Source: Coriobacteriia bacterium (GTDB taxonomy: Bacteria > Actinomycetota > Coriobacteriia > Anaerosomatales > SLCP01). From it: a stretch of DNA of 64,000 nt. Location of the stretch: NCBI GenBank assembly GCA_030603745.1, contig JAUVXE010000007.1:43392-107391 (forward strand), in the 5' to 3' direction. A program made the translations under genes and the position numbers. The notes beneath the pieces were generated by a model. The model ran no database searches, had not been told where the DNA came from, and worked only from the letters and a program-made list of their open reading frames with translations. Shown here in pieces: positions 18,346 to 44,909 of this stretch. The first letter of the stretch is position 1. Every line of letters starts with the position of its first letter.

Positions 18346-18420
18346 TCATCTGTCTCGCCTCCCTTACCCCGTACACCGATGGGACGGACCCCATTGCCGG
18401 GAGGTCCGCCACAGCACCAG

Positions 18421-18530
18421 TCTCCTTTCCAAGGTCCGGAAGGACGGGAGGCGCCAGGGTTTCCCCGGACACCCTATCGGCCGCGGCGCCATGGCTTTCG
18501 CGGTAGGCGTCCGGGGCTCGGAGACGATGT
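18421..18530 (-). promoter_or_regulatory. Moco/Tuco-type riboswitch aptamer candidate in the 5' leader of the fdnG-like operon
   Basis: The mRNA reads CUCCGAGCCCCGGACGCCUACC...CCGAUAGGGUGUCCGGGGAAACCCUGGCGCCUCCCGUCC...GGAAAGGAGA. It shares five ordered sequence blocks with the tupA leader at 36403..36510. Closing helix: UCUCC...GGAGA. Confidence 0.6.
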
Positions 18531-18576
18531 TCCATTTTCACGGTCCGCGGGACGTTGCCGGTCGATCCCGGGACCC

Positions 18577-18592: not shown

Positions 18593-18607
18593 ATACGCTC
18601 ACTCGCA

Positions 18608-26142: not shown

Positions 26143-26391
26143 TCAGACGTCCTCGAACGAAGCGGACGCCGTGGGCTCGAGATCCGCCCTGCCGAGGAGC
26201 TCCAGCGCCCGGTCCACCTCGGCGGGCTCAAGGCGCAACGCGATCCCGCAGAGCCCCGTCCCGAGGGTCTTGGGGGCCGGCACGGGGACGACGTCGATCC
26301 CGAGGTCTTTCAGGAGCTGTTCCGCCGAGAGCGCCCGGTGGGTCGACCCGAACCCGAGCACGGTGAACAGGCGCGGCTCGCGCACGGTCAC
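26143..26391 (-). CDS. DUF3343-like small protein (putative S/Se carrier)
   Basis: GTG 26391 overlaps the desulfurase stop (GTGA). The 82-aa product begins VTVREPRLFTVLGFGSTHRALSAEQLLKDLGIDVVPVPAPKTLGTGLCGIALRL, the typical DUF3343 pattern as I recall it. Confidence 0.65.
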   Translation of the reverse strand: MTVREPRLFTVLGFGSTHRALSAEQLLKDLGIDVVPVPAPKTLGTGLCGIALRLEPAEVDRALELLGRADLEPTASASFEDV

Positions 26392-27557
26392 GATGCCAGC
26401 TCCCGGAGTGCCGAAAGCACGGTGTCGACCTGCTCTGCGGTGTTGCCCCACCCCACGCCGAAACGCACCGCGCCGCACTCAAGCGTTCCCACGGTCTCGT
26501 GCGCCCAGGGGGTGCAGTGCAGCCCGGCCCGTGCCGCGATGCCGTATGCGCGGTCGAGCTCGTAGGCGATCCTGTCGGAGTCGAGGGTGTCGTGCACGAC
26601 GGTGACGATCGGCACCCTCGGCACGCCCGGAGGCGGGCCGAGCACTCGGAAGCCCTCGATCGCGAGCACCCCCTCGTGCAGGCGACGGACGAGCTCGGCC
26701 TCGGCGGCACGGAGCGTGGCGCCCTCGGCCTTAAGGAGGGCCGCGGCGGCGCCGAGTCCGACGATCCCGGGCGTGTTGGCGGTACCGGCCTCGTAGCGGT
26801 CGGGACGCTCGGCAGGCATCTCGAGCGAGTCGGAGGCTCCTCCGCCGGTGCCGCCCTCGATCTGCACCTCGAGCTCGAGGCCCGGGACGAGGTAGAGCAG
26901 CCCGATCCCCTGCGGGCCGAGCATGCCCTTATGGCCCGAGGTCGCGTAGGCGTCGGGGGCGAGCGAGGCGAGGTCGACGTCGAGGTGCCCGGCGCCCTGG
27001 GCGCCGTCCACGAGCATGAGCGCGCCGTGCTCGTGCGCGATGTCGGCCAGGTCGCCGATGAGCTGGACCGTGCCGGTCAGGTTCGAGGCGTGCTGGCAGA
27101 CGACCGCGCGGGTGGGCGCGGCGCCGACCTCGCGCTCGACGTCGGCCGGGTCGACGAGCCCGGTGGGATCCGCCTTCACCACCACGACCTCCACGCCGGC
27201 GCGGGCGAGGTGCGCGAGGGGACGTGCGACGGCGTTGTGCTCCATGGAGCCGACCACCACCCGGTCGCCCGGTCGCAACGAGCCCTTGAGCATGAGGTTG
27301 CACGCGGCCGTGCAGCCGGACTGGAAGAGCAGGTCGCGGGTGTCTGGCACGCCGAGGAGCGTCGCACAGGCGCGACGGGCCTCGAGGATCGCGCGCGACG
27401 AGGCGAGCGCCAGCGCGTAGGCCCCGCGCCCCGGGTTGCCGCCGAGTTCGGTGAGCGCGCGCACCACCGCGTCGACGACGGGCCCCGGCTTGGGCCACGA
27501 GCTCGCGCCATGGTCGAAGTAGGCCACCGGCGGGCGGGTCTCCTCGGCGGGCGACAC
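26388..27557 (-). CDS. Class-V aminotransferase-fold cysteine desulfurase / selenocysteine lyase family protein
   Basis: GTG 27557 lies 2 nt after the mogA stop. The PLP-lysine motif is ATSGHKGMLGPQGIGLLY. The N-terminus YFDHGASSWPKPGPVVDAV is typical for the family. The upstream part of the track ORF is artefact. Confidence 0.8.
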   Translation of the reverse strand: MSPAEETRPPVAYFDHGASSWPKPGPVVDAVVRALTELGGNPGRGAYALALASSRAILEARRACATLLGVPDTRDLLFQSGCTAACNLMLKGSLRPGDRVVVGSMEHNAVARPLAHLARAGVEVVVVKADPTGLVDPADVEREVGAAPTRAVVCQHASNLTGTVQLIGDLADIAHEHGALMLVDGAQGAGHLDVDLASLAPDAYATSGHKGMLGPQGIGLLYLVPGLELEVQIEGGTGGGASDSLEMPAERPDRYEAGTANTPGIVGLGAAAALLKAEGATLRAAEAELVRRLHEGVLAIEGFRVLGPPPGVPRVPIVTVVHDTLDSDRIAYELDRAYGIAARAGLHCTPWAHETVGTLECGAVRFGVGWGNTAEQVDTVLSALRELAS

Positions 27558-27559
27558 CG

Positions 27560-28045
27560 CTAGTGGCCCCCGCCCGCGATCATCTCGACGGCGTGCGTGA
27601 GCTGGTCGGCGATGAAGGAGAACGACTCGCGGGCGGCCTTCTCGCTGCCGGGAAGGTTGACGATGAGCGTGGTGCCGCGCAGGCCGGCGGTCCCGCGGGA
27701 GAGCATGGCGCGCGGGGTGACCTTGAGGCTCTCGGCCCGGATGTGCTCGGCGATGCCGGGAGCGCGCCGGTCCGAGACCCGGTCGGTGACCTCGGGCGTG
27801 ATGTCGCGCCGGCTGAAACCGGTGCCACCGCAGGTCAGAACCACGTCGGCCTCGTCGAGGTCGGCCATCTGGATGAGCGAGTCGGCGATGCACTCGTCCT
27901 CGTCAGGGCAGACGTGGTAGGCGATGACGAGCCACCCGCGCTCCTCCACGAGCTCGATGAGCGCCTGGCCGGCGGTGTCCTCGGCGCCACCCGCGGCGCG
28001 GGTGTCCGAGCAGGTCAGGATCCCGACCCTCAAGTCGCGTCCCAC
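27560..28045 (-). CDS. MogA/MoaB-family molybdopterin adenylyltransferase-like protein
   Basis: 161 aa with VGILTCSDTRA...VVLTCGGTGFSRRDITPE...LPGSEKAA, the MogA/MoaB signature. Confidence 0.85.
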   Translation of the reverse strand: MGRDLRVGILTCSDTRAAGGAEDTAGQALIELVEERGWLVIAYHVCPDEDECIADSLIQMADLDEADVVLTCGGTGFSRRDITPEVTDRVSDRRAPGIAEHIRAESLKVTPRAMLSRGTAGLRGTTLIVNLPGSEKAARESFSFIADQLTHAVEMIAGGGH

Positions 28046-28046
28046 G

Positions 28047-28550
28047 TCACTCCTTCCGGTCGCACGTCCCGTCGCCGAGGGCGAGGACCGTGATGGCGTC
28101 GCCGGCGCGGACGTCTCCGGGCTCGCGCACGACCGCGAAGATGCCCTCGCGGGGCATGACGCAGTCGCCGGCCTGGTAGTAGATGGCGCACTTAGTATGG
28201 CAGACCTTCCCGATCTGGCTCACCTCGAGCACCGCCTCCTCGCCGACGCGGAACGTGGTGCCGATCGGCATCGCGAGGAGGTCGATCCCCTCGGTGGTGA
28301 TGTTCTCGGCGAAGTCGCCTGCGGCGACGTCGAGTCCCTTGGCGACCATCGAGTCGATCGACTCTTGCGCGAGCAGGCTCACCTGCCGGTGCCAGTCGCC
28401 GGCGTGCGCGTCACCCGCGAAGCCGCGGTCGAACACGAGGGTGCCCTCCTCACCGCGGGTCTTGCGCACCGTCTTCTTCTCGGAAAGGTTCACCGACACG
28501 ACCTTCCCGGGACCGGGGAGCGCAGGGGTGGCGGTCTCGTTCTCGTTCAT
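28047..28550 (-). CDS. MOSC-domain protein
   Basis: 167 aa with [10 protein letters not shown]...[14 protein letters not shown]...[18 protein letters not shown], a MOSC beta-barrel-like pattern. Located within the Moco operon. Confidence 0.7.
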
Positions 28551-29107
28551 CGTTCCTCCTCGCGGGTCCAGCGGCCGGATGCGCCGCCCTCCTTCTCGAG
28601 CAGCATGACCTCGCCGAGGACCATGCCCCGGTCGACGGCCTTACACATGTCGTAGAGCGTCAGCCCGGCCACCGCGGCGGCCGTGAGCGCCTCCATCTCG
28701 ACGCCGGTCGGCCCGGTGGTCTCGCAGACCGCGACGATCCGGACCGCGGCGAGGCCGTCGCCGGTCGGATCGGGCTCCTCGGCGGTGAGGTCGACCGAAG
28801 CGTGCGTGAGCGCGATCGGGTGACACATCGGGACGAGGTCCGCGGTGCGCTTCGAGGCCATGATGCCGGCGATGCGCGCGGTGGCGAATACGTCTCCTTT
28901 GGGCGCGCGGCCCTCGACGATCATCGCGAGCGTCTCGGGACGCATCGTGATGCGAGCGGAGGCCACGGCGCGCCGGTGCGTGTCGGGCTTGGCGCCCACG
29001 TCGACCATGCGGGCCTCGCCACGCTCGTCGAGGTGCGTGAGCCGCCCGTGGGGGCCGGCGGCACCGGCCGCGGCGGGCGGCACGGCGGGAGGTTCGGTGG
29101 CGCTCAT
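28547..29107 (-). CDS. moaC: Cyclic pyranopterin monophosphate synthase MoaC
   Basis: Uses the internal ATG 29107 of track ORF 28547..29377. Motifs: [16 protein letters not shown]...[28 protein letters not shown]...[23 protein letters not shown]. Confidence 0.9.
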
Positions 29108-29114
29108 CGGGCGG

Positions 29115-30137
29115 TCACCCTCCGATCTGGGACATGCCGCGCGCGGTGCCGACCCGGGAGCTGTGGCTCTCGGGCTTGGTCGCGAGCGCGGTGCGGATGA
29201 GGTCACGGACATCGGCGTCGGTGCCGCCTCGCAGCACCGAGCGCACGTCGATCTCCTCGTCGGAGAAGAGGCAGGCGCGCAGCCGGCCGTCGGCGGTGAG
29301 GCGCAGGCGGTTGCACTCGCCGCAGAAGTGGTGCGAGAGCGGCGTGATGACGCCCACGGTCCCCGGGGCGCCCGCATAGCGGTAGTAGCGCGCCGGCCCC
29401 CAACCGCCCGGGGCGTCGCCGCGCCGGACGGGCTCGAGCGCGCCGAGGCCGGCCGCGGTCCCCTCGGCGGTGAGGCGCTCGAGGATCTCCTCGGCGGAGA
29501 CGTGGTCGGCGCGCGTCCAGCCCTCTCCGGCCGGCTCGCACTCCCCGCCCTCGGACGCGCCGCCCACCGGCATGTACTCGATGAAGCGCACGTGCACCGG
29601 GCGGTCGAGCGTGAGCCGCGCGAAGGCGAGCAGGTCCTGGTCGAGGCCGCGGACCACGACCGCGTTCACCTTGACGGGGCCCATGCCTGCCGCGAACGCG
29701 GCGTCGAGGCCCGCCAGCGCGTCGGCGAGCTTGCCGCCGCGCGTGACGCGCTCGAAGACCGCGGGGTCGAGCGAGTCGAGCGAGATGTTGACGCGCGTGA
29801 GGCCCGCCTCGACGAGCGGGGCGGCGTAGCGCGCGAGCAGCGTGCCGTTGGTGGTCAGCGCGATCGCCTCGAGCCCGGTGAGCGCGCGGAGCCGCCGGAC
29901 GTGGCCGACGACCCCCTTGCGCACGAGCGGCTCGCCGCCGGTCAGGCGGATCTTGGAGATGCCCTCCCCGACCGCGATCGCCGCGAACCGCTCGATCTCC
30001 TCGAGCGAGAGGATCTCGTCGTGGTCCTTCCACGCGACGCCCGCCGCGGGCATGCAGTAGACGCACCGCAGGTTGCACCGGTCGGTGAGCGAGATGCGCA
30101 GGTAGTCGATGCGCCTGCCGAACGCGTCGATCGCCAC
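29115..30137 (-). CDS. moaA: GTP 3',8-cyclase MoaA (radical SAM)
   Basis: 340 aa. Contains the radical-SAM [10 protein letters not shown] motif and the C-terminal [19 protein letters not shown] second-cluster motif. Confidence 0.95.
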
Positions 30138-30706
30138 TACGCCCCGCCCCCCGTCGCCGTCGGGCCCGTGCCGGTCCGCCGCGACCGCGCCTCGGCCCCG
30201 CCGAGGAACCGCTCCTCGATGAGGTCCGCGACGCCCGCCGCGTCGTCGAGCGCGAAGACCGGCGCCGGAGAGCCCGCGAGCGCCTCGACGTCGGTGACGA
30301 GGGCGAAGAGCTCCTCGGCGGCGCAGATCGGTTCGGCCGAGCGCGCCGCGCGCACCACCTCGACGAGCACCGGGGCGGTGGCGCGGAACCCCTCGGTCAG
30401 CAGGAGGTCGAGTCCTTCGGCGGCGGCGAGCGACGCGAGGTCGGCCAGCGAGCGCTCGCCGTCCACCCGCCGGATCACGCCGAGGCGGTTCGGGGCGCTC
30501 ACCATCGTCATGACCGCCCCGGCCCGCTCGTGGCGCCAGGTGTCCTTGCCGGGCACGTCGATGTCGGTCTCGTGCGCGTGATGCTTCGCGGTGCCGACCC
30601 GCCAGCCGCGGGAGGCGAGCTCGGCGATCACGCCCTCGAGCAGGGTCGTGCGGCCCGACTTACTCTTGCCCACCACGCTGACCACCGGAAGCGCCAGCCC
30701 GCTCAT
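30137..30706 (-). CDS. mobB: Molybdopterin-guanine dinucleotide biosynthesis adapter MobB
   Basis: Uses the internal ATG 30706 of track ORF 30137..30787. Contains a P-loop (VVGKSKSGRTTLL) and AKHHAHETDIDVPGKDTWRH. Confidence 0.8.
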   Translation of the reverse strand: MSGLALPVVSVVGKSKSGRTTLLEGVIAELASRGWRVGTAKHHAHETDIDVPGKDTWRHERAGAVMTMVSAPNRLGVIRRVDGERSLADLASLAAAEGLDLLLTEGFRATAPVLVEVVRAARSAEPICAAEELFALVTDVEALAGSPAPVFALDDAAGVADLIEERFLGGAEARSRRTGTGPTATGGGA

Positions 30707-30707
30707 C

Positions 30708-30923
30708 TCAGAAACAGCCGAGGTCACAGTTGTGGACCTTGATCCCGATCGAGTCGGCCGCCGCGCCCGCCACCTTGTAGGGGACACCGCTGTCCTCGGC
30801 GAGCTTCCTCAGCACCGGACAGGTGATGCGGCCTTCGCGGGCCTTCTCCCGCACCGCCTCTGTCAGCTCGGGCGTGACCTGCTCGGCCCACCTGGGGTCG
30901 ATCTGCTTGGGTGAACCGCTCAC
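30708..30923 (-). CDS. Small conserved-looking protein of unknown function in Moco operon (71 aa, C-terminal CDLGCF)
   Basis: The ORF fits exactly between moeA (4-nt overlap) and mobB (1-nt gap). Codon usage matches its neighbours. I do not recognise the family. Confidence 0.5.
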   Translation of the reverse strand: MSGSPKQIDPRWAEQVTPELTEAVREKAREGRITCPVLRKLAEDSGVPYKVAGAAADSIGIKVHNCDLGCF

Positions 30924-32167
30924 GGCGATCCCTCCTCCATGTCGAGTCGGACGACCTCGGCCGGGGTGCCGGCCGCGAAGAACCCTTCACCTTGCGGGAG
31001 CACGAGCAGGCAGTTGCCCTTGTGGGCGGCGGTCAGCAGCGCCGAGGACTGCGAGCCGGAGAGCGCGACCACGAGCCCGCCGTCCTCCCCGCGCTCGAGC
31101 CGGGCGCGCAGGTAGTAGCGGCGGTCCTGTTTCTTCTTGACGTCGTGCGCGAGCGTGGCGACCGAGCGCGGGCGGTCGAGCGCGGTGTGCCCCTGCATGT
31201 AGCGCAGTGCGGGACGCACGAACACCTCGAAGCCCACGTAGGTCGAGGTCGGGTTGCCCGGAAGGCCGAAGAAGGGCACCCCGTCGATGGAGCCGAGCGT
31301 CTGCGGGTTGCCCGGCCGCATCGCGACCTTGCAGAACTCCATCTCGCCGAGCTCCTCGAGCACGGGCTTGACGAAGTCGAAGTCGCCCACGCTCACCCCG
31401 CCGCTCGTCACGATGAAGTCGGCCTCGGCGGCGGCGCGGGCGAACGCCTCCCGGGTCGCGTCGGGGTCGTCGCGCACGATCGGGAAGCGCAGCGGCTCGC
31501 CGCCCGCGGCGAGGACCTGGGCGGCGATCGAATAGGAGTTCGAGTTGCGGATCTTGCCCGGGCCGGGCTGCTCGGCGACCTCGACGAGCTCGTCGCCGGT
31601 CGAGAGCACCGCCACACGGGGGCGGCGGTGGACCTCGACCGTCGCATGCCCCGCCGAGGCGGCCAGTCCCACCGCGGCCGGGCCGACGACCTCGCCCGCG
31701 AGCAGCACCGCGTCTCCCGCGGCGACCTCCTCGCCCCTCAGGCGGACGTTCTCGCCGGGCGCGACGGTGCGGCTCACGTGGACCGTGCCGCCCGTGGAGC
31801 CCGCGGCCTCGCCGGGGGTCGTGTACTCGACCATCACCACCGAGTCCGCCCCGGGAGGCATGGGCGCGCCCGTCATGATCCGCGCAGCCTGTCCGGGACC
31901 GACCTCGAGGTCGGAGTGGTCGCCGGCGGCGATGTGGGAGACGACGTCGAGCGTGACCGGCACGCCGTCGACTGCCGTGGCGAGATCGGCGGCGCGCACC
32001 GCGTAGCCGTCCATCGCCGAGTTGTCGAACGGCGCGATGTCGATGTCGGAGCGCACGTCGGCGGCGAGCACCCTGCCGAGGGCCTCCAGGATCGGCACGC
32101 GCTCGGTCGCGAGGACTCGGCAGCGCGCGAGCACGAGGTCGCGGGCCTGCTCCACGGTGAGCGTCAT
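30920..32167 (-). CDS. moeA: Molybdopterin molybdenum/tungsten transferase MoeA
   Basis: Uses the internal ATG 32167 of track ORF 30920..32503, with an ATGA overlap on the upstream stop. Motifs: IAPFDNSAMDGYAVRAADL, VLSTGDELV, IVTSGGVSVGDFDFV, LPGNPTS. Confidence 0.9.
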   Translation of the reverse strand: MTLTVEQARDLVLARCRVLATERVPILEALGRVLAADVRSDIDIAPFDNSAMDGYAVRAADLATAVDGVPVTLDVVSHIAAGDHSDLEVGPGQAARIMTGAPMPPGADSVVMVEYTTPGEAAGSTGGTVHVSRTVAPGENVRLRGEEVAAGDAVLLAGEVVGPAAVGLAASAGHATVEVHRRPRVAVLSTGDELVEVAEQPGPGKIRNSNSYSIAAQVLAAGGEPLRFPIVRDDPDATREAFARAAAEADFIVTSGGVSVGDFDFVKPVLEELGEMEFCKVAMRPGNPQTLGSIDGVPFFGLPGNPTSTYVGFEVFVRPALRYMQGHTALDRPRSVATLAHDVKKKQDRRYYLRARLERGEDGGLVVALSGSQSSALLTAAHKGNCLLVLPQGEGFFAAGTPAEVVRLDMEEGSP

Positions 32168-33588
32168 CGGGCATCCTCCTCGGCGGGGTTCGTGACGATG
32201 CGTTCGGGGTGCGTGTAGACGGTGATCTTGCCGCCGCGCGCATACCCTGCGAGCGTGATGCCGAGTTCGGCGGCGATCTCGGCGGCCAGGTCGGTGACCG
32301 CGGTGCGGGAGACGACCACCGGCACCCCGGCCTTGGCGGCCTTGACGGCCATCTCGTAGGAGATGCGGCCGGTGGAGAGCAGCACCGCGTCGCGCGCGGG
32401 GACGCGATCGAGCCACGCCCGGCCGAGGAGCTTGTCGAGCGCGTTGTGGCGCCCCACGTCCTCCCGCACGAGCAGCAGCTCGCCGCCGCGCGCCAGCCCG
32501 CACGCGTGCATGCCGCCGGTGTCCCGGTACGACGTGGCCGCGCGCGCCATCTGCCCCATGAGGTCGTAGAGGTCCTGGCTGTCGACCCGCAGCCCGCTCT
32601 CGACGCGGGCGAGCCCGCGGGCGTGCCCGACCGAGGAGAACGTCACGCCCTTGCCGCAGCCGCTCGTGACGTAGCGGGTCTTGTAGACCATGTCGTCGGG
32701 GACCGCCTCGGCGGTGTTCGCGTAGACGAGGCCGCGCTTGTGGTCGACGTCGATGGAGGCGAGCGCGTCGCGGTCGGCCATCAGCCCCTCGGCGACGAAG
32801 AAGCCCGCCGCCATCTCCTCGAGGTCGTCGGGCGTGGCCTGCACCGTCGCGACCTCGACGTCGTTCATGTAGAGCGTGATCGGGCGCTCGGAGGGCATGC
32901 CGCGGGGGCGGCGCGTTCCGACCTCGATCACCGAGACGACGACCCGCTCGGCGTCGCGCGCGTCACGCCGCTTCGGCGCCTGCTCGCGGGCGTCGGCGAG
33001 CTCCTCGGGCGTGTTCACGTTCAGGAAGCTCTTGAGCCCGGGGTCGACGCCACGCAGCGAGTCGACCGGGACCTCGACGACCGTGACCTCGCGAAAGACC
33101 GCGACGAGGCGGCGTCGGCCGCTCGCGAGCACCGTGCGGGCCACCGGCAGACACGCGCGGGAGTAGAGGGCGAGCAGCGGTTCGGGACCCTTGTCGGTCA
33201 CCGGTACGACCACGTCGGCGCCGTCGCGGGCCTCCCACAGCGCACGGACGACCGCGGCCGAGACGTGCGGCATGTCGGCGGCCACGGCGAGCACCCACTC
33301 GTCGGGTGCCTCGGCGAGCGCGGTGACGAGCCCGCCGAGGGGGCCCTGATAGGGTATCTCGTCGGTGAGGACCCGCACGTCGGACGGCAGGCCCGCGTCG
33401 GCGAGCGCCTCGGGACGGTTCGTGACGACGATCGTGTGGGCGCAGACCTCGCCGACCGCGGCGGCGACACGGGCTACGAGCGCCTCGCCATCCACGGGCA
33501 GGAGCGTCTTGTCCACACCCATCCGCATGGAGCGGCCACCGGCCAGCACCGCGGCGGTACAGGGAAGGATGGCGGGTTCGGGGGTCAC
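32164..33588 (-). CDS. MobA-FdhD fusion (Moco guanylyltransferase fused to formate dehydrogenase sulfurtransferase/accessory protein)
   Basis: The N-terminal half is MobA-like: AAVLAGGRSMRMGVDKTLLPV...AADMPHV...FLNVNTPEEL. The C-terminal half is FdhD-like: YVTSGCGKGVTF...GGMHACGL...EDVGRHNALDKLLG...VVSRTAVTDLA. GTG 33588 follows a GAGAGGA RBS. Confidence 0.85.
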   Translation of the reverse strand: MTPEPAILPCTAAVLAGGRSMRMGVDKTLLPVDGEALVARVAAAVGEVCAHTIVVTNRPEALADAGLPSDVRVLTDEIPYQGPLGGLVTALAEAPDEWVLAVAADMPHVSAAVVRALWEARDGADVVVPVTDKGPEPLLALYSRACLPVARTVLASGRRRLVAVFREVTVVEVPVDSLRGVDPGLKSFLNVNTPEELADAREQAPKRRDARDAERVVVSVIEVGTRRPRGMPSERPITLYMNDVEVATVQATPDDLEEMAAGFFVAEGLMADRDALASIDVDHKRGLVYANTAEAVPDDMVYKTRYVTSGCGKGVTFSSVGHARGLARVESGLRVDSQDLYDLMGQMARAATSYRDTGGMHACGLARGGELLLVREDVGRHNALDKLLGRAWLDRVPARDAVLLSTGRISYEMAVKAAKAGVPVVVSRTAVTDLAAEIAAELGITLAGYARGGKITVYTHPERIVTNPAEEDAR

Positions 33589-33682: not shown

Positions 33683-34795
33683 TCATCGGTCTCCTCGCAC
33701 CCTGACCCGCACCGCCGAGGCCTTGAACACGACCTGCACGAACGAGCCCGCCTCGAGTCCCAGCTCGCGCACCGAGGCGCGCGAGACACGCGAGGCGAAC
33801 GGACTGCCCGCGACGTCGATCGTCATGTGGTGCATGGCCCCCCACGACTGCACCTCGGTGACCGTGCCTGCGAAGCGGTTGCGCGCGGTCGACTGCGGGA
33901 TCTCCGCGTCGCCCTCGAACAGGAGCACGTCCTCCGGACGCACGCCGAGGAGCACCGGGGTCCCGACCGCCTCCGAGCCGGCCGCGAAGACGACCGCCCC
34001 GCCGATGTCGACCCCCACGAGCCCCTCGGCCGAGGAGACGACCTCGCCCTCGAGCGGCTCCCCCGCGCCGAGGAAGGTCGCGGTCCAGGCGTCGGGCGGC
34101 AGCCCGGTGATCTCGTCGACCGGGCCGCTCGCGACCGCGACACCGTCGCGCAGGATCATCATGGTGTCGGCGACCGCCATCGCCTCGTTCTGGTCGTGCG
34201 TGACGTAGAGCGTGGTCATCGACTCCTCGCGGATGATCCGCGCGAAGTCCTGGGCGAGCCGGCCTTTGATGAGCGGGTCGAGCGAGGAGAGCGGCTCGTC
34301 GAGGAGGAGCACCCGCGGTCGCAGCACGAGCGCGCGAGCGAGCGCGACCCGTTGCGCCTCGCCGCCGGAGAGCGTGAGCGCCGAGCGGTCCTCCCATCCC
34401 GCGAGCCCCACCCGCTCGAGCGCCTCGGCGACCGCGCTCCGCCGTGCCCCGGAGAGCATGCGGCGGAGCCTCAGGCCGTAGGAGACGTTGTCGGCGACGG
34501 TGCCCTTGAACAGGTACGGACTCTGGAACGCGGCCGCCATCTGAAGGCGGGCCGCCTTGTCGCGATGCGTGACCTCGCGCCCGTCGAGCAGGACGGTGCC
34601 CTCGTCGGCCGGCTCGAGCAGGCCGAGGATCGCGAGCAGCGTCGACTTGCCGGCACCGGAGGGGCCGAGCAGCGCGAGCGTCTCGCCCGGCTCGATGCGC
34701 ACCTCGGCCACGTCGACGACGGTACGCTTGCCGTAGGTCTTGCGGATCCCCGTCGCCTGCAGCGAGATGCCGGCGGGTGTGGTTCGCGTGGTCAT
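33683..34795 (-). CDS. tupC: Tungstate/molybdate ABC transporter ATP-binding protein with C-terminal TOBE-like domain
   Basis: 370 aa with Walker A (GPSGAGKST), signature motif (LSGGEAQRVALARAL) and Walker B (LLLDEP). An OB/TOBE-like tail ends VRVRVRG. Confidence 0.8.
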   Translation of the reverse strand: MTTRTTPAGISLQATGIRKTYGKRTVVDVAEVRIEPGETLALLGPSGAGKSTLLAILGLLEPADEGTVLLDGREVTHRDKAARLQMAAAFQSPYLFKGTVADNVSYGLRLRRMLSGARRSAVAEALERVGLAGWEDRSALTLSGGEAQRVALARALVLRPRVLLLDEPLSSLDPLIKGRLAQDFARIIREESMTTLYVTHDQNEAMAVADTMMILRDGVAVASGPVDEITGLPPDAWTATFLGAGEPLEGEVVSSAEGLVGVDIGGAVVFAAGSEAVGTPVLLGVRPEDVLLFEGDAEIPQSTARNRFAGTVTEVQSWGAMHHMTIDVAGSPFASRVSRASVRELGLEAGSFVQVVFKASAVRVRVRGDR

Positions 34796-34796
34796 C

Positions 34797-35504
34797 TCAG
34801 CTCCTCTCGAACCGCTCGTTCGAGTGCTGGTACCACGTGAGGAACCCGTTCATCGCGAACGTGATGGTCATGAGGATCAGTCCGAGCGCGAGCGCGAGGC
34901 CGAAGTCGCCCTTGCGCGACTCCTGCACGATCGCCGTGGTGAGCACGCGGGTCTGCCCCTCGATGTTGCCGCCGACCATCATGACGGCACCGACACCGCG
35001 CACCACGGCGCCGAACCCGCTCGCGACAGCCGCGAGCACGCCCAGGCGCGCCTCCCTCAGCGCGAGGAGGGCCTCTTGGACCCTCGATGCGCCGAGGGAG
35101 CGCGCCTGCAGCCGAAGCTTGTACGGCACCGACGCCACGGCTGCGGCGGTCAGGCCGGCGATGATGGGCGCGGAGATCAGGGTCTGCGCGATCGACATCG
35201 CGTCCTTCGTGTAGAGCAGGCCGAGGAAGCCGAGCGGACCCTGGCGAGAGAGGAACATCATCACGACGAGGCCGATGACCACCGGGGGCACGGCCATCGC
35301 GGTGTTCATGAGCGCGACGAGGAGCCTGCGTCCCCGGAACCGGGTCGCCCCCATGACGAAACCCATGGGAGCGCCGAGCACGACTCCGGCCGCCGTGGAG
35401 ACGATGGCGACCTCGAACGTCACCGCGATGACGTTCCAGAGCTCCGTCGAGCCCTGGAAGAGCAACGTGACCGCTGTGACGACTGCTTCGGCGAACACCT
35501 GCAT
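34797..35504 (-). CDS. tupB: Tungstate ABC transporter permease TupB-like
   Basis: 235 aa and polytopic. It has the TupB-like GAVMMVGGNIEGQTRVLTTAIVQESRKGDFGLALALGLILM. Confidence 0.75.
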   Translation of the reverse strand: MQVFAEAVVTAVTLLFQGSTELWNVIAVTFEVAIVSTAAGVVLGAPMGFVMGATRFRGRRLLVALMNTAMAVPPVVIGLVVMMFLSRQGPLGFLGLLYTKDAMSIAQTLISAPIIAGLTAAAVASVPYKLRLQARSLGASRVQEALLALREARLGVLAAVASGFGAVVRGVGAVMMVGGNIEGQTRVLTTAIVQESRKGDFGLALALGLILMTITFAMNGFLTWYQHSNERFERS

Positions 35505-35513: not shown

Positions 35514-36395
35514 CTACTCCGCGTCGGGGATGAAGAGGGGCTCGCCGTACGTGTCGACCCCGAAGCTTTCGATGATCGCCTGGCCGGCGGGCGAGACGAT
35601 CCAGTCGGCGAAGGCCTGCGCGCCCTCGAGGTTGCCCGCGTCGGTCACGACGATCACGCCGTACGGGTTGAAGAGCGCCTCATCGCCCTCGACCGCGACC
35701 GTGAGGTCGAGGCGGTCCCGCATCGCCAGGTACGTGCCGCGGTCCGCCAGCGTGTACGCCCCGATCTCGGACGCCATGGTGAGCGCCTCGCCCATGCCCT
35801 GCCCGATCGAGAGGTACCACTCCCCGGCAGGCTCGATGCCCGCGAGCGACCAGAGCGAGCGCTCCGTGGTGTGGGTGCCGGAATCGTCGCCACGCGAGAC
35901 GAACACGTGCGCACCGCCGGCGATCGCGGTCAGGGCCGCCGCCGCGTCACTCGTGCCGGCGATGCCGGCGGGGTCCGCCTCGGGGCCGACGATCACGAAG
36001 TCGTTGTACATGACGTCGCGGCGCTCGACGCCATAGCCCTCGGCGACGAACTCCTCCTCCTGCGACCTGGCGTGCACGAGCAGGACGTCGGCATCACCTG
36101 CTCGGCCGATCTCGAGCGCCTGGCCGGTCCCGACCGCGACCACGCTCAGGCGGTACCGCGGATAGGCGTCCTCGAAGGCCGGGACCAGCTCGGTGAACAG
36201 GCCCGAGTCCTCGGTCGAGGTGGTCGAGGCGATGATCACGTTCGTGACCTCGACCTCTTCGACGGGTTCGGGTGCGGACGGCTCCTCGGCGACCTCTTCG
36301 GCGCCGCACGCGGCGAGACCGGATACGAGTACGAGCGAGAGGAGCAGTGCGAGTGCCTGCCGCTTGAGCGCGGGCGAAGGACGAAGCTCGAGCAT
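35514..36395 (-). CDS. tupA: Tungstate-binding lipoprotein TupA-like
   Basis: ATG 36395 follows an AAAGGAGA RBS. A lipobox is present (LVLVSGLAACG). TupA-type motifs: ASTTSTEDSGL, VGTGQALEIGRAGDADVLLVHA, SRGDDSGTHTTE, FNPYGV. Confidence 0.8.
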   Translation of the reverse strand: MLELRPSPALKRQALALLLSLVLVSGLAACGAEEVAEEPSAPEPVEEVEVTNVIIASTTSTEDSGLFTELVPAFEDAYPRYRLSVVAVGTGQALEIGRAGDADVLLVHARSQEEEFVAEGYGVERRDVMYNDFVIVGPEADPAGIAGTSDAAAALTAIAGGAHVFVSRGDDSGTHTTERSLWSLAGIEPAGEWYLSIGQGMGEALTMASEIGAYTLADRGTYLAMRDRLDLTVAVEGDEALFNPYGVIVVTDAGNLEGAQAFADWIVSPAGQAIIESFGVDTYGEPLFIPDAE

Positions 36396-36402
36396 GTATG
36401 GG

Positions 36403-36510
36403 TCTCCTTTCCACCGGGAGGCGAGGAGGTTTCCCTTCCCCACCCTATCGGTCCGGGACCCGTGGCCCGCTCGGCTGGGCTGTAGGGCATCCGGACTCGG
36501 AGATATGTGG
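36403..36510 (-). promoter_or_regulatory. Moco/Tuco-type riboswitch aptamer candidate in the tupA leader (RBS-sequestering)
   Basis: The mRNA reads CUCCGAGUCCGGAUGCCCUAC...CCGAUAGGGUGGGGAAGGGAAACCUCCUCGCCUCCCGGUGGAAAGGAGA-cccauac-AUG. The 3' strand of the closing helix (GGAGA) is the tupA Shine-Dalgarno. The ordered blocks match those at 18421..18530. Confidence 0.6.
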
Positions 36511-36532
36511 CCGCTGAAGCGACCGCACGAAG

Positions 36533-36562
36533 ACGATACCGCATCCGTCCGCGACGCGACAA
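36533..36562 (-). promoter_or_regulatory. Possible promoter for the tupABC leader
   Basis: The minus strand reads TTGTCG-18 nt-TATCGT, about 25 nt upstream of the aptamer. The match to consensus is only moderate. Confidence 0.3.
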
Positions 36563-36596
36563 CTCTCCCGACCGGAGGAGCGCGTTCGCGGGTACC

Positions 36597-37490
36597 CTAC
36601 CGCTCCACCGCGGAACGCAGGTGGCCGAGGAACGCCTCGGCGGCGCGGGTGAGCGTCGTGCGCGGGGTGACGATGTAGAGCGGGCGCGAGACGGGAAAGC
36701 CCTTGGCCCTGACGGTGGCCACGGTGCCGAGCTCGAGCGCCTTCTCGGCGACCCATGAGCTCACCATGCCGAGCCCGAGTCCTCCCTCGACCGCGCTCAC
36801 GATCGCCTCGCCGGTGCCGAGCTCGGTGACCACGTGGAGCTCGGCCACGTCCACACCCGCCGAGCGGAGGGCCCCCTCGGCGATCTGGCGCGTGCCCGAG
36901 CCCTCCTCGCGCATGACGAACGGCTCGGCGGTCACCTCCGCGATATCGACCCGCTCCGCAGTGGCGAACCGGTGGTCGGGCGGGCAGATGAGCACGATGT
37001 CGTCGGTGCCCATGGGTTCGAAGTCGGCACGCGCTCCCTTGACGACCGCGCCGGTCACGCCGAGGTCGGCCTCGCCCGCCACTACAGCGTCGACGACCTG
37101 CGCGGTGTCGGCGACCGCGATCGAGACCGCCACCTCGGGGTTGGCGCGCAGGAAGCGCCCGAGCAGGCGCGGCAGCACGTACTGTCCCGGGGTGGTGCTC
37201 GCGGCCAGGGTCAGCCGCCCGGTGACCTGCTCGCTCATGCGCGCGAGGTCCTCACGCGCCTGCTCGAGTTCGCCGAGGACCGCCCGCGCATGCGGCAACA
37301 GGGCGGTGCCCGATTCGGTGAGTTCGATCTTGCGGTATCCGCGGTCGAGCAGCGTCACGCCGAGGTCGGACTCGAGGGCCTGGACCTGCATCGTGACCGC
37401 GGGCTGCGAGATGCCCATCTGCCGGGCGGCCGCGGAGAACGAGCCGTGGTCGACCACCATCACGAACGCTCTGATCTGTGCGAGGTTCAC
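36597..37490 (-). CDS. LysR-family transcriptional regulator
   Basis: GTG 37490 starts VNLAQIRAFVMVVDHGSFSAAARQMGISQPAVTMQVQALESDLGVTLLDR, a LysR wHTH. The remainder resembles a LysR substrate-binding domain. The track ORF start 37613 is an artefactual extension. Confidence 0.85.
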   Translation of the reverse strand: MNLAQIRAFVMVVDHGSFSAAARQMGISQPAVTMQVQALESDLGVTLLDRGYRKIELTESGTALLPHARAVLGELEQAREDLARMSEQVTGRLTLAASTTPGQYVLPRLLGRFLRANPEVAVSIAVADTAQVVDAVVAGEADLGVTGAVVKGARADFEPMGTDDIVLICPPDHRFATAERVDIAEVTAEPFVMREEGSGTRQIAEGALRSAGVDVAELHVVTELGTGEAIVSAVEGGLGLGMVSSWVAEKALELGTVATVRAKGFPVSRPLYIVTPRTTLTRAAEAFLGHLRSAVER

Positions 37491-37603: not shown

Positions 37604-38059
37604 ATGGATGCATGTGAGAACCATTCTCATTTCGGCGAGGGCCGCGTCACCGCGCGCAGGCGCGCGATCGCACGCGCCGCCGACGCGATGCCCGGGGCGT
37701 TCACGGTGGACGAGCTCTCCTCGGCGGTGCGCGAGAGCGCGCCCGGCACCGGCACCGCGACCGTCTACCGGGCCGTCGCCGCGATGGAGGCCGCGGGCAC
37801 GCTCGAGCGCGTGGGCGCGCGTGACGGGAGCGCGCTCTACGTCCGCTGCCACGCCGACGCCCACCACCACCACCTCGTGTGCACGGGGTGCGGCAGCGTC
37901 GCGCACGCAGAGTGTCCCCTCGGCGAGGAGTCGGTGCGCGCGCTGGCGGGAACCGGATTCACGGTGACCGGCCACGAGATCACGCTCTACGGGCTCTGCC
38001 CCGCATGCGCGACCGAACACCGGACGAACCCCCCGACCCTGGCCACCCGGAAGGACTGA
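37604..38059 (+). CDS. Fur-family metalloregulator
   Basis: 151 aa with a wHTH (TVDELSSAVRESAPGTGTATVYRAVAAMEAAGTLERV). Metal sites: HHHHLVCTGCG and CPAC. It lies directly upstream of cbiMQO. Confidence 0.85.
   Translation: MDACENHSHFGEGRVTARRRAIARAADAMPGAFTVDELSSAVRESAPGTGTATVYRAVAAMEAAGTLERVGARDGSALYVRCHADAHHHHLVCTGCGSVAHAECPLGEESVRALAGTGFTVTGHEITLYGLCPACATEHRTNPPTLATRKD
37615..37629. promoter_or_regulatory. Fur-box-like 7-1-7 palindrome TGAGAACCATTCTCA
   Basis: TGAGAAC-C-ATTCTCA has 6 of 7 complementary arms and resembles the TGATAATnATTATCA architecture. It overlaps codons 4-9 of the fur-family gene. Confidence 0.45.
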
Positions 38060-38067
38060 TCGCTGAC

Positions 38068-38883
38068 ATGTCACACATCCACATCCCCGACGGAGTACTC
38101 CCCTTCTGGCTCTGGGCGGCCGGATGGGCGATCGCGCTCGTGATGGTCGGTGTCGCCGGGCGCGTCGCCGGGCGCTCTGAGGCGCGGCGCAAGGTGCCGC
38201 TCGTGGGGGTCGTGGCGGCGCTCATGATCGTGAGCATGTCCTCGGAGATCGTCCCGATCGCCTACCACGTGAACCTCTCGGTGATCGGTGGCATCCTGCT
38301 CGGGCCCGCGCTCGCGGTGATCGCCGCGTTCATCGTCGAGGCCGTGCTCGCGATGCTCGGGCACGGCGGGGTCACGGTGCTCGGCCTGAACACCATGGTC
38401 ATCGGCGCCGAGATGGTGCTCGGCTGGGCGCTCTTCCACGCGATCCTCAAGGTGATCAAGCCCACCCGCGCCGGGATCGGGGCCGGGATCGCGACGTTCC
38501 TGACGCTCGCGGTCACCACCACGCTCGTGGTGGGCATCGTCTGGATCGGCGGCGGCGGCGAGGCGGCGGAGCGCGAGACCGGCGCGCTCGACCCGTCCAC
38601 GCTGCGCTTCGAGAACCCGTTCGAGGAGGGGCTCTTCGAGTTCGGGCTCTTCGGCGACGGACACGGGGACGAGGACGAGGACGCCGAGGGAGAGCGCTAC
38701 CTGTCCGTGGGCCGCTTCGCCCTCGTGGTCTACACCCTCGGCCCGGTCGGCTGGCTCCTTGAGGCGCTCGTGACCGCCGGTATCATCGGGTACGTCGCGC
38801 GTGTCCGGCCGAGGATGGTCTTCGAGGGCGCGCTCGCCGAGGAGATGGCCCGCATCCCGGGCGACGAGACCGGAGGCCACTGA
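38068..38883 (+). CDS. cbiM: ECF-type Ni/Co transporter substrate-capture component CbiM/NikM-like (extended C-terminus, possible M-N fusion)
   Basis: Uses the internal ATG 38068 of track ORF 37879..38883. The N-terminus is MSHIHIPDGVLPFWLW. The protein is polytopic. An acidic loop (GDGHGDEDEDAEGE) is followed by an extra C-terminal TM. Confidence 0.75.
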   Translation: MSHIHIPDGVLPFWLWAAGWAIALVMVGVAGRVAGRSEARRKVPLVGVVAALMIVSMSSEIVPIAYHVNLSVIGGILLGPALAVIAAFIVEAVLAMLGHGGVTVLGLNTMVIGAEMVLGWALFHAILKVIKPTRAGIGAGIATFLTLAVTTTLVVGIVWIGGGGEAAERETGALDPSTLRFENPFEEGLFEFGLFGDGHGDEDEDAEGERYLSVGRFALVVYTLGPVGWLLEALVTAGIIGYVARVRPRMVFEGALAEEMARIPGDETGGH

Positions 38884-38884
38884 C

Positions 38885-39697
38885 GTGCACATCGGCCGCA
38901 TCGACGAGTCGGCGACGCTCGGGGACTCCTGGCTGCACCAGGTCTCCCCGATCAGCAAACTGCTCGCGTTCGCCCTCGTGCTGGCCGCGGTCGTGCTCTC
39001 GTGGAACGTGCTCGTGATCGCGTCGATCACCCTCGTGCTCACGGCCGTCGCCGTCTCGGCGCGCCTCAAGGGTCGCCTGGCGTTCTCGCTTTCAGCCTAC
39101 CCGGCGCTCTTCGCGCTCATCTTCGCGTTCAGCGCCGCCACGAGCGTGCTCGGTGGCGCGGTGATCGTGCTCAAAGCGGTGACCGCCGCCCTCGGCGCGG
39201 TGATCGTCATCCTCACGACGCCCTACCCGTACGTCTTCGCCCCACTCCAGCGGGTCGTCCCCGGCATCGTCGGTGACGCGCTGCTCATGACCTACCGCTC
39301 GCTCTTCCTGCTGATCGAGAAGTTCGGGAACCTGCTGACCGCGGCCCGCCTCCGCGCCGGACTGCACGCCGGGCACCCCGTCCGCTCCGCCCGCGCGACG
39401 ACCCGAGCCCTCGGCGGGCTGCTCCTCTACTCGTTCGACCTCTCGCAGCGCTCCTACGACATCATGCGGATGCGCGGCTACGAGGGCCGCCTCCGGGTCA
39501 CGTTGCCGAGGAGCGCGGCCCCGCTCATCGACGCCGCGCTCGTGGGAGGGGCCCTCCTGCTCGCCGCGACCTCGCTGCTCTGGCGGGTGGGCTGGCGCGA
39601 CCTGAACCCCTACAGCTGGATCGTGCTCGCGGTGGCGGCCCTCGGTCTTGCGGCCGCCGCGGCCTCCACGTGGCCCGCGAGAGGACGGACGTCATGA
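38885..39697 (+). CDS. cbiQ: ECF transporter transmembrane component CbiQ-like
   Basis: GTG 38885 lies 1 nt after the cbiM stop. The protein is polytopic, with the CbiQ-like motif RLRAGLHAGHPVRSARATTRALGGLLLYSFDLSQRSYDIMRMRGY. Confidence 0.75.
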   Translation: MHIGRIDESATLGDSWLHQVSPISKLLAFALVLAAVVLSWNVLVIASITLVLTAVAVSARLKGRLAFSLSAYPALFALIFAFSAATSVLGGAVIVLKAVTAALGAVIVILTTPYPYVFAPLQRVVPGIVGDALLMTYRSLFLLIEKFGNLLTAARLRAGLHAGHPVRSARATTRALGGLLLYSFDLSQRSYDIMRMRGYEGRLRVTLPRSAAPLIDAALVGGALLLAATSLLWRVGWRDLNPYSWIVLAVAALGLAAAAASTWPARGRTS

Positions 39698-40687: not shown

Positions 40688-43600
40688 CTAGCCGACAGTG
40701 CGTGCGCGACGCCGCAGGGCGAGCCCTGCGATGGTCGCCGCGGCAGCCAGAGCGATGAGGCCGAGCAGGTTCCCTCCGGTGAAGGGCAGGAACGGCTCGT
40801 CGACATCGACGGTCACGCGCCACGTCGCACGGTCGTTATCGGGATTGTCATCGTCCGGGTGGGTCACGACGACCACGTTGTCGAGGATCGTCGTTCCTTC
40901 GGGCATGTCGTCCGCGACCTTGAGCTTGTAGGTGATGACGTGGTCCGTGCCGAAGACGAGCGGCCCGGGGAAGTTCCACGTGATCCGTCCGCCTGCGACG
41001 GTGCCACCGGCCGCATCCACGACGGTCAGGTACCGCTCGTCGAAGTCGTCGACGACCGTGTAGTCGTAGGCGGGGTCTCCGCCGACGTTCCTGACGGTCA
41101 CGGTGTAGGTGATGGTATCGCCGGGATCGGCGGTCGTGCGGTCACCGGACTTCTGCACCGCGAGGTCGGGCGGGAAGCCGAGGAACTCCTCGATGTCGAC
41201 GAACGCCTCGTCGGTATCGGAGACCTCATGGCCCCACTCGTCGGCCCCCGACGCCACCACGACGTTGAGGGTGGGCTCGAACAGCGCGGTCGTGGCCGTG
41301 AAGGTCTGCGACTCGCCCACGTCGAGCATCGCGATGGTCGCGATCACGCCGAGGTGGTCGTCTGAGACCAACACGTCATAGAGGGGCACGTCGCCCGTGT
41401 TCTCGACGACGAACGTGTAGGTCACGTCCTCGCCCTCGAACACGAAGTCGGCGCTGGCGGACTTGGTCACGGAGATGGCCGGGTTCACGACCCTCACGAA
41501 CGCATCGTCGGATGCGGTGAGCGTCTCCTCCCAGCTGATCTCACGAGACTCGTCGATCCAGCCGTAGTACGCCTCGACGGTGCCCACGTTGGGGGTGTCC
41601 ACGTCGATGGTCGTCGTCGCGGTCACGGTCCACTCGCCAAGCGGCGCCAGGAAGTCGCGCGTCCCGAGCGGGCCGAGCTTGTCGTCGACGAGCGACAGGT
41701 CGTAGAGCTCCGTGTCGCCGTCGTTGGTGATGACGAACGTATAGGTCACCATCTCGCCGGGCAGGACCACCTCGGGGTCGACCGTCTTGACGATCGAGAG
41801 CGCCGGGTTCAGGACCACGACCGTCTCATCGTCGCTGTCGTCGACCGGGTTGCCGATCGGGTCGTACCCGACCACGTCGGCGATGTTGGTGGTGGTCTCG
41901 TCGAGCATGGTGGTGTGGTCGAGCAGCTCCCATGCGCCCGGAGCGAGCTCGTCGATCGTGCCGATGAGACCGAGCTTGTCGTCCTCCACGCTGATCGCCG
42001 TCAGCGTCTCCTCGCCCGAGTTGGTGACCAGGTAGTAGTAGGTGACCTCCATGTCGGCGGTGACGCCGGTGAGATCGGCCTGCTTCACGACGCTGATCGC
42101 GGGCTTGAGGATGTCGACGAGATGCGTGTCGAAGGCCGTGACGGTCCCCTGCAGGATGTGCGTCCCGATGACGTCCGCGCGGTTAGGCAGCGGGTCCTCG
42201 TCATCGGCCATCACGGTGTAGGGGACGTCGAAGCTGTAGGTCGCTCCGGCGGCCAGGCTCGGGAGCGTCAGGTCGACGTCCAGGAGCGGGTCGGTGATCT
42301 TGACGTTGGTGAGCGTGTGGTCGCCGGTGTTCTCGACGGTGATCGTATAGGTGATCTCCTCGCCCACGTAGGCGTAGGCGGGACCGGTCTTGTCGATCGA
42401 GATGCCCGGATCGTAGACCGAGACCATCGCGGAGTCGGTGTCGTCGACCTTGGTCTGCAGCACGTCGTAGCCTTCGACGACGGCCGTGTTGGTCATCGTG
42501 GCGGCGGGGAAGTACGCAGGCGCGGTCAGCGTGACGACCTCACCGGGGGTGAGCATGCCGATCATCGAATCGAACTCGATGTCCGGGTCGTCGAGGAAGA
42601 CGCCGGTGAGCGTCTCCTCACCGGAGTTGGTGACCACGAAGGTGTAGACCACCGAGTCACCGAGGAGGATCGAGCCGGGGCTCACCGACTTCGCCAGGCT
42701 GATCGCGGGCTTGAGGATGTCGACGAGGTGCGAGTCGTCATCGGTCAGTGTCCCGTCGAGCAGGTCGGTCGCCATCACGTAAGCTGTGTTGGGCAGCGGA
42801 TCGGGATCGTCCGCCTGCACGGTGTAGGGCACGTCGATGACGTAGGGGACGTTCGGGGCCAGGGTCGGCAGCGTGACGTCCACGCCGAGCTTGGGGTCGG
42901 TGATCTTGACGCTGTAGAGCGTGTAGTTGCCCGTGTTCTCGACGGTGATCGTGTAGGTGATCTCCTCGCCCACGTAGGCGTAGGCGGGACCGGTCTTGTC
43001 GATCGAGATGTTCGAGTCGACGTAGAAGTTGCCGAAGTCGAGCCCGGTGATCGCGCTGCCATGCGCCACCACGATCGGGTTCGTCGGCGCGAGCGTCTGG
43101 TACCAGTCGTCCTGGAGGACCTCCGAGATCTGGTAGGAGCCCGGAAGCACGTTGACGAACGAGAAGCTCCCATCGGCGGCCGTGGTGGTCTGGGCGTAGA
43201 GCGTGCCGCCCTTGTGGAGGCGGATCGTCCAGCCGCCGAGACCCGGCTCGCCGGCGTCCTTGACGCCGTCGGCGTCGAGGTCGTGGAACTTCATGCCCGA
43301 GAGCGCCGAGGAGTAGGTGAACCTGTTGGTCAGGTTCGACTCGAGCGTCTCTGAGAGCATCTCGCTCCTGAGCAAGATGTCCTCTCCGCCGAAGCTCGCG
43401 TACCAGTCCGCCCGGGTGATCGTGGACCCGAAGGGCAGGTCGACCGATCCGGAGTAGGTGTTGTTCGGCCCGGCCGTCAGCGCGACATCGGGCTGTACGA
43501 CGCCTGCCACCCAGAAGCGGGCGAAGAACGTCGCGCCCTGCGGCGCGCCGGCGAACGTGAGCTCGAACGTCTTGGTGACGTCGGGACGGTAGTTGCCGAT

Positions 43601-44809: not shown

Positions 44810-44869
44810 CCCCTTCCGCTCCGTGGACACTCCACCTCCCCGCCTGCGGCGGAGTCGGTCGGGGTGCAT

Positions 44870-44909
44870 AGAAAAGACCGGCTCCGTCTGAAAACGAACG
44901 GGCCGGTCT
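44870..44909 (-). terminator. Strong intrinsic terminator upstream of the adhesin start
   Basis: The minus-strand RNA reads GAGACCGGCCCGUucguuuucagACGGAGCCGGUCUUUUCU. That is about 12 bp of GC-rich stem with one bulge, a 10-nt loop and a U-tract. Confidence 0.7.

Follow-up and report, generated by a model that had tools for sequence, protein, structure and literature searches.

What does the untranslated leader of a tungstate-transporter gene, tupA, do, and if it folds into a cofactor-sensing RNA, which cofactor would it answer to and which step of expression would it control? The leader lies on the minus strand of the stretch of DNA analyzed here (64,000 nucleotides in full, hereafter the window). 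A first-pass annotation of this DNA had described a compact riboswitch-like element in the leader, shared with the leader of a formate dehydrogenase (FDH) operon and overlapping the ribosome-binding site (RBS) of tupA. We examined the family, structure, conservation and gene context of this element, and compared it with the known members of its family.

Identification and structure of the aptamer

When the entire window was searched with the Rfam 15 models, the tupA leader matched the molybdenum/tungsten cofactor riboswitch (Moco RNA motif, RF01055) over the full model, positions 1-135, scoring 56.3 bits (E 8.3e-11; gathering score 36). The 15 positions of the P3 hairpin were deleted in this copy and in the copy of the FDH leader, which reached the same score, and in both copies five nucleotides, CGAUA, join P2 to P4. 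This places the element among the P3-less ("Tuco-type") members of RF01055, and it heads an operon for tungstate uptake and cofactor synthesis. Its parts are as follows.

36388..36514, minus strand: full RF01055 match (56.3 bits, P3 positions deleted)
36403..36503, minus strand: aptamer core of 101 nt, both P1 strands included (structure from the Rfam alignment)
36499..36503, minus strand: P1 5' strand UCUCC (Rfam alignment; P1 is paired in 100% of cells in 21 related aptamers)
36451..36496, minus strand: P2, consisting of GUCCGG/CCGGAC, CCC/GGG and GCCC/GGGC (distal part variable; all 13 pairs change on both sides in relatives)
36446..36450, minus strand: J2/4 junction CGAUA, where the Moco class has P3 (P3 deleted; J2/4 is 4-5 nt long in 29/29 aptamers)
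36419..36445, minus strand: P4, GGGUGGGG-A-AGG / CCU-CCUCGCCU (8/11 pairs covary)
36430-36433, minus strand: GAAA tetraloop capping P4 (RF01055 alignment)
36411..36418, minus strand: P5 mini-hairpin CC-CGGU-GG with two pairs (RF01055 alignment)
36403..36407, minus strand: P1 3' strand GGAGA, doubling as the Shine-Dalgarno (SD) sequence of tupA (7 nt to the ATG)

Read 5' to 3' on the minus strand, the leader is ...AUAUCUCCGAGUCCGGAUGCCCUACAGCCCAGCCGAGCGGGCCACGGGUCCCGGACCGAUAGGGUGGGGAAGGGAAACCUCCUCGCCUCCCGGUGGAAAGGAGACCCAUACAUG. The junction nucleotides CUCCGAG, AGGG, CCUCCC and GGAAAGGAG are conserved within the P1/P2/P4/P5 multistem junction, and the helices around them are backed by covariation. 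At the tetraloop-receptor position, the internal loop of P2 reads CCUACA...CACGG, versus CCUAAG...UAUGG in the model consensus. The helix registers were taken from the Rfam alignment and then from a covariance model (R1) built from the tupA copy, which was rebuilt as R2 from 21 hits; a MAFFT alignment of the two window copies put the helices out of register and was discarded.

The two copies in the window were also compared directly. A composite pattern of their shared blocks, CTCCGAG-N-CCGATAGGGTG-N-GGAAAGGAGA, matched the window at exactly two places, 36403-36502 and 18421-18523, and matched none of 100 dinucleotide-preserving shuffles. The stretch between the GCC(C)UAC and CCGAUAGGGUG blocks is unlike in the two copies and corresponds to the distal part of P2. 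Between the tupA copy and the FDH-leader copy, a U-A pair of P2 is replaced by C-G with both sides changed, and in P4 G-U/G-C is replaced by U-G/C-G and A-U by G-C.

These results agree in large part with the first-pass annotation, which had named RF01055 as the family to be searched, proposed aligning the copies for compensatory changes and expected a variable stem between its second and third blocks. Both leaders carry all of its blocks on the minus strand, in the order given, but it spoke of five blocks and listed six. Its length of about 108 nt must be replaced by 101 nt (36503-36403), counted from P1 strand to P1 strand. The range that it assigned to the element, 36403-36562, held the aptamer together with about 59 nt upstream of it, reaching to a weak promoter-like TTGTCG. 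At the other side it ended with the final base of the SD, so that the start codon and the spacer before it were not covered; the strand is minus.

Conservation and covariation among TupA loci

The TupA proteins closest to that of the window are 60-80% identical to it and come from uncultured Coriobacteriia and Actinobacteria. A set of 80 TupA loci from species-representative genomes was scanned in full with Rfam, and RF01055 was found in 23 of them as 27 aptamers, four of the loci having tandem pairs. All 27 aptamers are P3-less, with a P2-P4 junction of 4-5 nt in each, and a covariance model built without P3 recovered exactly the same 27. Because the Rfam model includes P3, its uniform absence is not an artefact of the custom model. 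The survey drew on a separate and far larger collection of genomes and repeats in it the correlation between P3-less aptamers and tungsten genes reported in 2008, but goes no further than that.

The tandem pairs of P3-less aptamers stand upstream of the TupA relatives in loci L006, L014, L056 and L078, whose records are titled Clostridiaceae, Desulforudis and Deltaproteobacteria; in L006, a tandem glycine riboswitch lies further upstream of the aptamer pair.

In an alignment of 21 aptamers, standard pairs occupied 95.2% of the cells, compared with 72.7% in shuffles, and 25 of the 31 pairs changed on both sides. The covariation score was 0.571, whereas it was at most 0.124 when the partners were slid by 1-3 columns, and none of 500 shuffles reached the observed values. 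This alignment was fitted to the model and accordingly favors the structure somewhat, but the margin is large even so.

These data also bear on a different view of the shared blocks, namely that they are a repeat or a protein-binding site and not a structured RNA sensor, as the presence of two copies with long identical blocks in one 64-kb window might indicate. Both copies, however, lie well above the gathering score of RF01055 and in the sense-strand 5' leaders of functionally linked operons. Moreover, in 21 sequences drawn from several phyla the junctions are constant and the helices covary, and the variable parts are exactly the stems. We consider that the covariance-model scores and the covariation effectively refute the repeat or protein-site view, which keeps hardly any probability.

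Gene context of the tupA leader

The aptamer is followed on the same strand by the transporter genes and a cofactor cluster, and is preceded by a regulatory gene.

36597..37490, minus strand: selenium-metabolism-associated LysR-family regulator, directly upstream of the tupA riboswitch (NF040786, 279 bits, cut-off 250)
35514..36395, minus strand: tupA, a TupA-family tungstate-binding lipoprotein of 293 aa (ATG at 36395)
34797..35504, minus strand: tupB, permease (start reported as overlapping the tupA end)
33683..34795, minus strand: tupC, ATPase with a TOBE domain (start reported as overlapping the tupB stop)
26388..33588, minus strand: remainder of the same-strand cofactor cluster, presumably co-transcribed with tupA, judging from strand and spacing
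32164-33588, minus strand: mobA-fdhD fusion, in the same-strand cluster after tupC
30920-32167, minus strand: moeA, cofactor cluster
Between moeA and moaA, minus strand: a 71-aa ORF and then mobB, cofactor cluster
29115-30137, minus strand: moaA, cofactor cluster
After moaA, minus strand: moaC, a MOSC-domain gene, a MoCF_biosynth-domain gene and a class-V aminotransferase (cysteine desulfurase-like), cofactor cluster

Part of the gene calls came from a 13.7-kb Logan contig that carries P0001, a database protein identical to the TupA of the window.

The first gene was assigned to TupA from several lines of evidence. The signal sequence of its product ends in ...LVSGLAAC, and Pfam reports PBP_like_2. 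The only NCBIfam match of the 293-aa protein was TupA (NF041772, 184.4 bits, below the equivalog cut-off of 400), so that it is a member of the TupA family but not a certified equivalog; no match to ModA or WtpA in NCBIfam was found at E<=0.001. Its best relatives in the PDB are the tungstate-binding proteins 3LR1 (E 2.8e-70) and 5MY5 (9e-57). The oxyanion-site motifs are present as ASTTSTEDSGL and FVSRGDDSGT, in which the first T of TTTS is S; the TTTS motif and the arginine R118 in VSRGDxSGT were defined on TupA of Desulfovibrio alaskensis (PMC5517513). The transporter had been called TupA-type and not ModA-type in the first-pass annotation, and the family match, the structural relatives and the motifs all bear this out.

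From the order of the genes, the aptamer heads a roughly 10-kb cluster for tungstate uptake and the complete pyranopterin pathway, and this cluster would be read as a single transcript. For annotation, the element has modest value: it ties the tupABC-mobA/fdhD-moeA-mobB-moaA-moaC cluster and the neighboring selenocysteine FDH together as a single unit under cofactor control, and it makes the use of tungsten a reasonable prediction for this uncultured Coriobacteriia-like organism.

Divergent from the LysR-tupA unit are a Fur-family regulator (37604-38059, plus strand; gene calls on L081) and a CbiM/CbiQ/ABC-ATPase transporter of the cobalt/nickel ECF type (37879-39697, plus strand). With these genes beside the tupA unit, several metal-uptake systems are clustered here. 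Elsewhere in the window, a c-di-GMP-II-GAG riboswitch (RF03169, 60.5 bits versus 40) occupies 44894-44981 on the minus strand, 25 nt upstream of an ORF (40688-44869, minus strand) for a 1393-aa surface/adhesin-like protein with DUF7507, DUF11, SdrD_B, CARDB and SpaA domains.

Position of the Shine-Dalgarno sequence and control of tupA

The only SD-like sequence of tupA is GGAGA (36407-36403), separated from the ATG (36395-36393) by a 7-nt spacer, CCCAUAC, and it forms the 3' strand of P1. The same arrangement was seen in six related leaders (L001, L003, L004, L005, L008 and L012), where an in-frame ATG or GTG lies 5-7 nt past the GGAG(A) of P1. These leaders belong to high-G+C relatives titled Actinobacteria or Coriobacteriaceae, and each of the starts opens a signal peptide. 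In the low-G+C relatives (records titled Clostridiaceae, Tissierella, Eubacteriales or Eubacteriaceae), hairpins with U tracts come after the aptamer instead, and the start codon is far downstream. The CUCC/GGAG of P1 is kept throughout the family, and the feature specific to the clade is the start codon right behind P1.

We also considered how the leader would fold. In the partition function of the 166-nt leader, the pairs of P1 had probabilities of 0.58-0.69 without any ligand term, and nearest-neighbor folding left the SD about 88% paired even without ligand. A dominant anti-sequestor helix was sought in the leader ensemble and none was found; the main alternative partner of the SD was the 3' strand of P2, with a probability of about 0.11. 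The aptamer fold lay only 0.6 kcal/mol above the minimum free energy (MFE) in the 166-nt context, and in a 115-nt segment the aptamer structure had -45.2 kcal/mol versus an MFE of -48.5. Plain MFE folding of the leader does not give the aptamer back, which is uninformative because the RNA is 66% G+C.

Based on these features, we consider it probable that the element is a P3-less RF01055 OFF switch, in which the cofactor, probably in its tungsten form, locks P1, hides the SD and stops the translation of tupA. When the metal-loaded pyranopterin cofactor is plentiful, it would bind the four-helix aptamer (P1, P2, P4 and P5), the ligand being most likely the tungsten form, and the bound cofactor would lock the 5-bp P1, UCUCC/GGAGA. 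Since the 3' strand of P1 is the only SD of tupA and lies 7 nt from the ATG, locking of P1 would block 30S binding and turn the translation of tupA off. In this case, tupB and tupC would go off with tupA, because their starts overlap the preceding stops (translational coupling), and genes further downstream might be lowered through polarity. When the cofactor is scarce, P1 would open and the transporter would be made, which amounts to feedback repression. The degree of P1 and SD pairing predicted in the ligand-free leader, the weak match to a promoter consensus and the TupA score below the equivalog cut-off count against this reading. Translational control of tupA, which the first-pass annotation had predicted, is a reasonable inference because the SD is visible inside P1 and this recurs in six related leaders; E. 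coli moaA has the same arrangement.

Alternatively, the aptamer might act mainly on transcription, through Rho-dependent or intrinsic termination in or after the leader, with SD occlusion as a secondary effect. Untranslated operon leaders are common Rho targets, every gene of an operon as long as this one (about 10 kb) could be silenced efficiently through polarity, and terminator platforms occur in relatives from other phyla. However, no terminator-like hairpin lies in the 7-nt interval between the aptamer and the tupA ATG, and the tight spacing from SD to start is kept in six relatives. We regard a mainly transcriptional action as very improbable, and translational repression as the preferred reading.

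Consensus promoter and terminator scans returned nothing in the tupA or the FDH leader; they miss the two candidates that we discuss here, since in one the hexamers match too few positions and in the other, the FDH-leader hairpin, the loop exceeds 8 nt. The first was read by eye.

36533..36562, minus strand: putative weak promoter-like site TTGTCG-18-TATCGT (below the threshold of the consensus scan)

This site sits between the LysR gene and the aptamer, and read-through from the upstream LysR gene into the tupA leader is possible. The stop codon of the LysR gene is spanned by a 10-bp inverted repeat, CGGUGGAGCG...CGCUCCUCCG (36573-36610, minus strand), which lacks a U tract and might terminate LysR transcription before the promoter-like site of tupA.

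Tungsten or molybdenum cofactor as the ligand

Among the 176 Moco motifs described by Regulski et al. (2008, PMC2408646), 58 are P3-less, and this class tracks tupA, tupB and wtpA almost perfectly. From this genomic correlation, the authors proposed that the P3-less class senses the tungsten cofactor, Tuco (PMC2408646), as the first-pass annotation had correctly stated. The element in the window shows the same association, as it lies directly upstream of tupABC. The correlation between P3-less aptamers and tungsten genes is still the sole basis for calling the class a tungsten-cofactor sensor. Regulski et al. stated that the instability of the cofactor precluded a direct test of binding, and this extends to the type member of RF01055 (PMC2408646).

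On the transporter side, characterized TupA binds tungstate with picomolar and molybdate with nanomolar affinity (6 nM), a preference for tungstate of about 1000-fold (PMC5517513). Because the affinity for molybdate is nanomolar, molybdenum may play a role. The same riboswitch, with the same sequestering of the SD, could then have the molybdenum cofactor or either metal form as its effector, and the transporter and the FDH could serve molybdenum too or instead. This would be in line with the molybdate affinity of TupA and with a tungsten selectivity of the P3-less class that was deduced from genomic correlation (PMC2408646); in addition, mobA, moeA, moaA and moaC serve both cofactors, and the metal used by the FDH is not readable from its sequence. 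The uniform lack of P3 in the 27 aptamers adjacent to TupA, in agreement with the published segregation, and the roughly 1000-fold preference of TupA nevertheless argue for tungsten. So do 1H0H and 6SDR, the solved structures most closely related to the FDH alpha subunit, which are tungsten enzymes. Accordingly, we judge a molybdenum effector unlikely, though deserving of some weight, and prefer the tungsten cofactor as the ligand.

Comparison with known systems

On the one hand, the window element resembles the Moco riboswitch of E. coli moaA, in which the RBS is part of P1 and the synthesis of Moco represses expression (Regulski et al. 2008, PMC2408646). Both belong to RF01055, share the P1/P2/P4/P5 core with GAAA on P4 and have the RBS in the 3' strand of P1. 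E. coli moaA is a translational OFF switch answering to cofactor synthesis, and the window element would follow the same logic. On the other hand, the E. coli element has P3, which is needed for its function, controls moaABCDE and is assigned to Moco, whereas the element described here is without P3 and heads a tupABC transporter operon.

A further parallel is found in Eubacterium limosum, for which a 2024 study described five P3-less "Tuco riboswitches" with translational and transcriptional platforms (PMC11725836), located ahead of tupABC, wor1, fetABC and focA (PMC11725836). In both organisms, a P3-less RF01055 aptamer lies directly upstream of tupABC, the genome has several copies, and the proposed platforms are mixed. 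The tupABC leader of E. limosum, however, is described with a separate RBS-sequestor hairpin and an anti-sequestor, whereas in the window the P1 of the aptamer itself is the sequestor; in E. limosum, direct sequestering by the aptamer is described for fetABC2 alone. The host of the window also differs in being high-G+C and uncultured, with its closest TupA relatives annotated as Coriobacteriia, and its operon adds the cofactor pathway.

In tandem or triple arrangements of Moco motifs, such as the triple of Syntrophomonas wolfei (PMC2408646), P3-less aptamers likewise precede operons for MPT synthesis and for molybdate/tungstate transport. Unlike these, the window has a single aptamer per leader, with its copies in two separate operons 18 kb apart.

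The family, the P3-less class, its link with tupA, the platform with the RBS in P1 and the occurrence of several copies with differing platforms in one genome are all already published. No new mechanism or family is involved here; the element is an ordinary member of RF01055, of little surprise to specialists.

The sister aptamer and the formate dehydrogenase operon

The second aptamer of the window belongs to the operon of a selenoprotein.

18406..18535, minus strand: sister aptamer in the leader of the selenocysteine FDH operon (RF01055, 56.3 bits, P3 deleted)
17522-17524, 17440-17527, 52607-52699 and 52775-56110, all minus strand: selenocysteine system (UGA, SECIS-like hairpin, tRNA-Sec, selB and selA), complete

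The sister aptamer measures 104 nt from P1 strand to P1 strand and lies about 250 nt upstream of the gene for an FDH alpha subunit with a TAT signal, the FDH being encoded at 14522-18157. About 70 nt downstream of the aptamer begins a hairpin (18289-18356; -33.5 kcal/mol, z -5.1), followed by a U-rich tail, UUUUCCUUUUCU. The first-pass annotation took this copy to be transcriptional; the strong hairpin and its tail make that view plausible, but the distance from the aptamer leaves it less secure.

The leader of the FDH operon (18157-18420, minus strand) is unusually long, with about 250 nt after the aptamer, and contains a possible 39-aa ORF (MKTDRFQGVRALSVVGLFLFSPPLSAREGRSKPRRVR; ATG at 18349) with GGGAGG ahead of it. 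Ahead of the aptamer, TTGACA-17-TAATCT (about 18606-18636, minus strand) makes a good promoter-like site, and between this site and the aptamer lies a perfect 16-bp palindrome, TGTAACAATTGTTACA (18577-18592). The palindrome is a candidate operator, which would add protein control to the FDH riboswitch.

The gene for the alpha subunit has an in-frame UGA at 17524-17522 (...HQARI-U-HSSTVAGLAAAFGRGAMTNNW), and a stable SECIS-like hairpin (-41.2 kcal/mol, z -3.6) comes right after it. Because selA, selB and tRNA-Sec are all in the window as well, we conclude that the FDH is a selenoprotein. Among solved structures, the best relatives of the alpha subunit are 1H0H (235 bits) and 6SDR (227 bits), both tungsten enzymes, with E. 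coli FdnG behind (199 bits); this ranking points to a tungsten enzyme, in a suggestive but not decisive way. Of the "W/Se enzyme" proposed in the first-pass annotation, the selenium part is thus supported, and the tungsten part is still a matter of prediction.

We also considered that the two P3-less aptamers might together make up a small tungsten-cofactor regulon whose logic is opposite or graded. The switch at the uptake and cofactor operon would then be a translational OFF switch, and the other copy would serve the selenocysteine-containing and probably tungsten-dependent FDH from its position about 250 nt upstream. If the FDH copy were an activating (ON) Tuco switch, this would be a new behavior for the RF01055 family, and if the regulon existed, the aptamer pair would provide a clean natural system for the discrimination of tungsten and molybdenum by the P3-less class. 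We regard such a regulon as improbable.

On their flanks, the FDH and cofactor clusters have multihaem c-type cytochromes (12454-13650 and 24214-25940, both minus strand). One with a paired-CXXCH domain comes directly after the Fe-S subunit of the FDH, and a cytochrome c7-like protein adjoins a cytochrome b561-like protein. The presence of these cytochromes suggests that electrons from formate oxidation enter a transfer chain in the periplasm or outside the cell.
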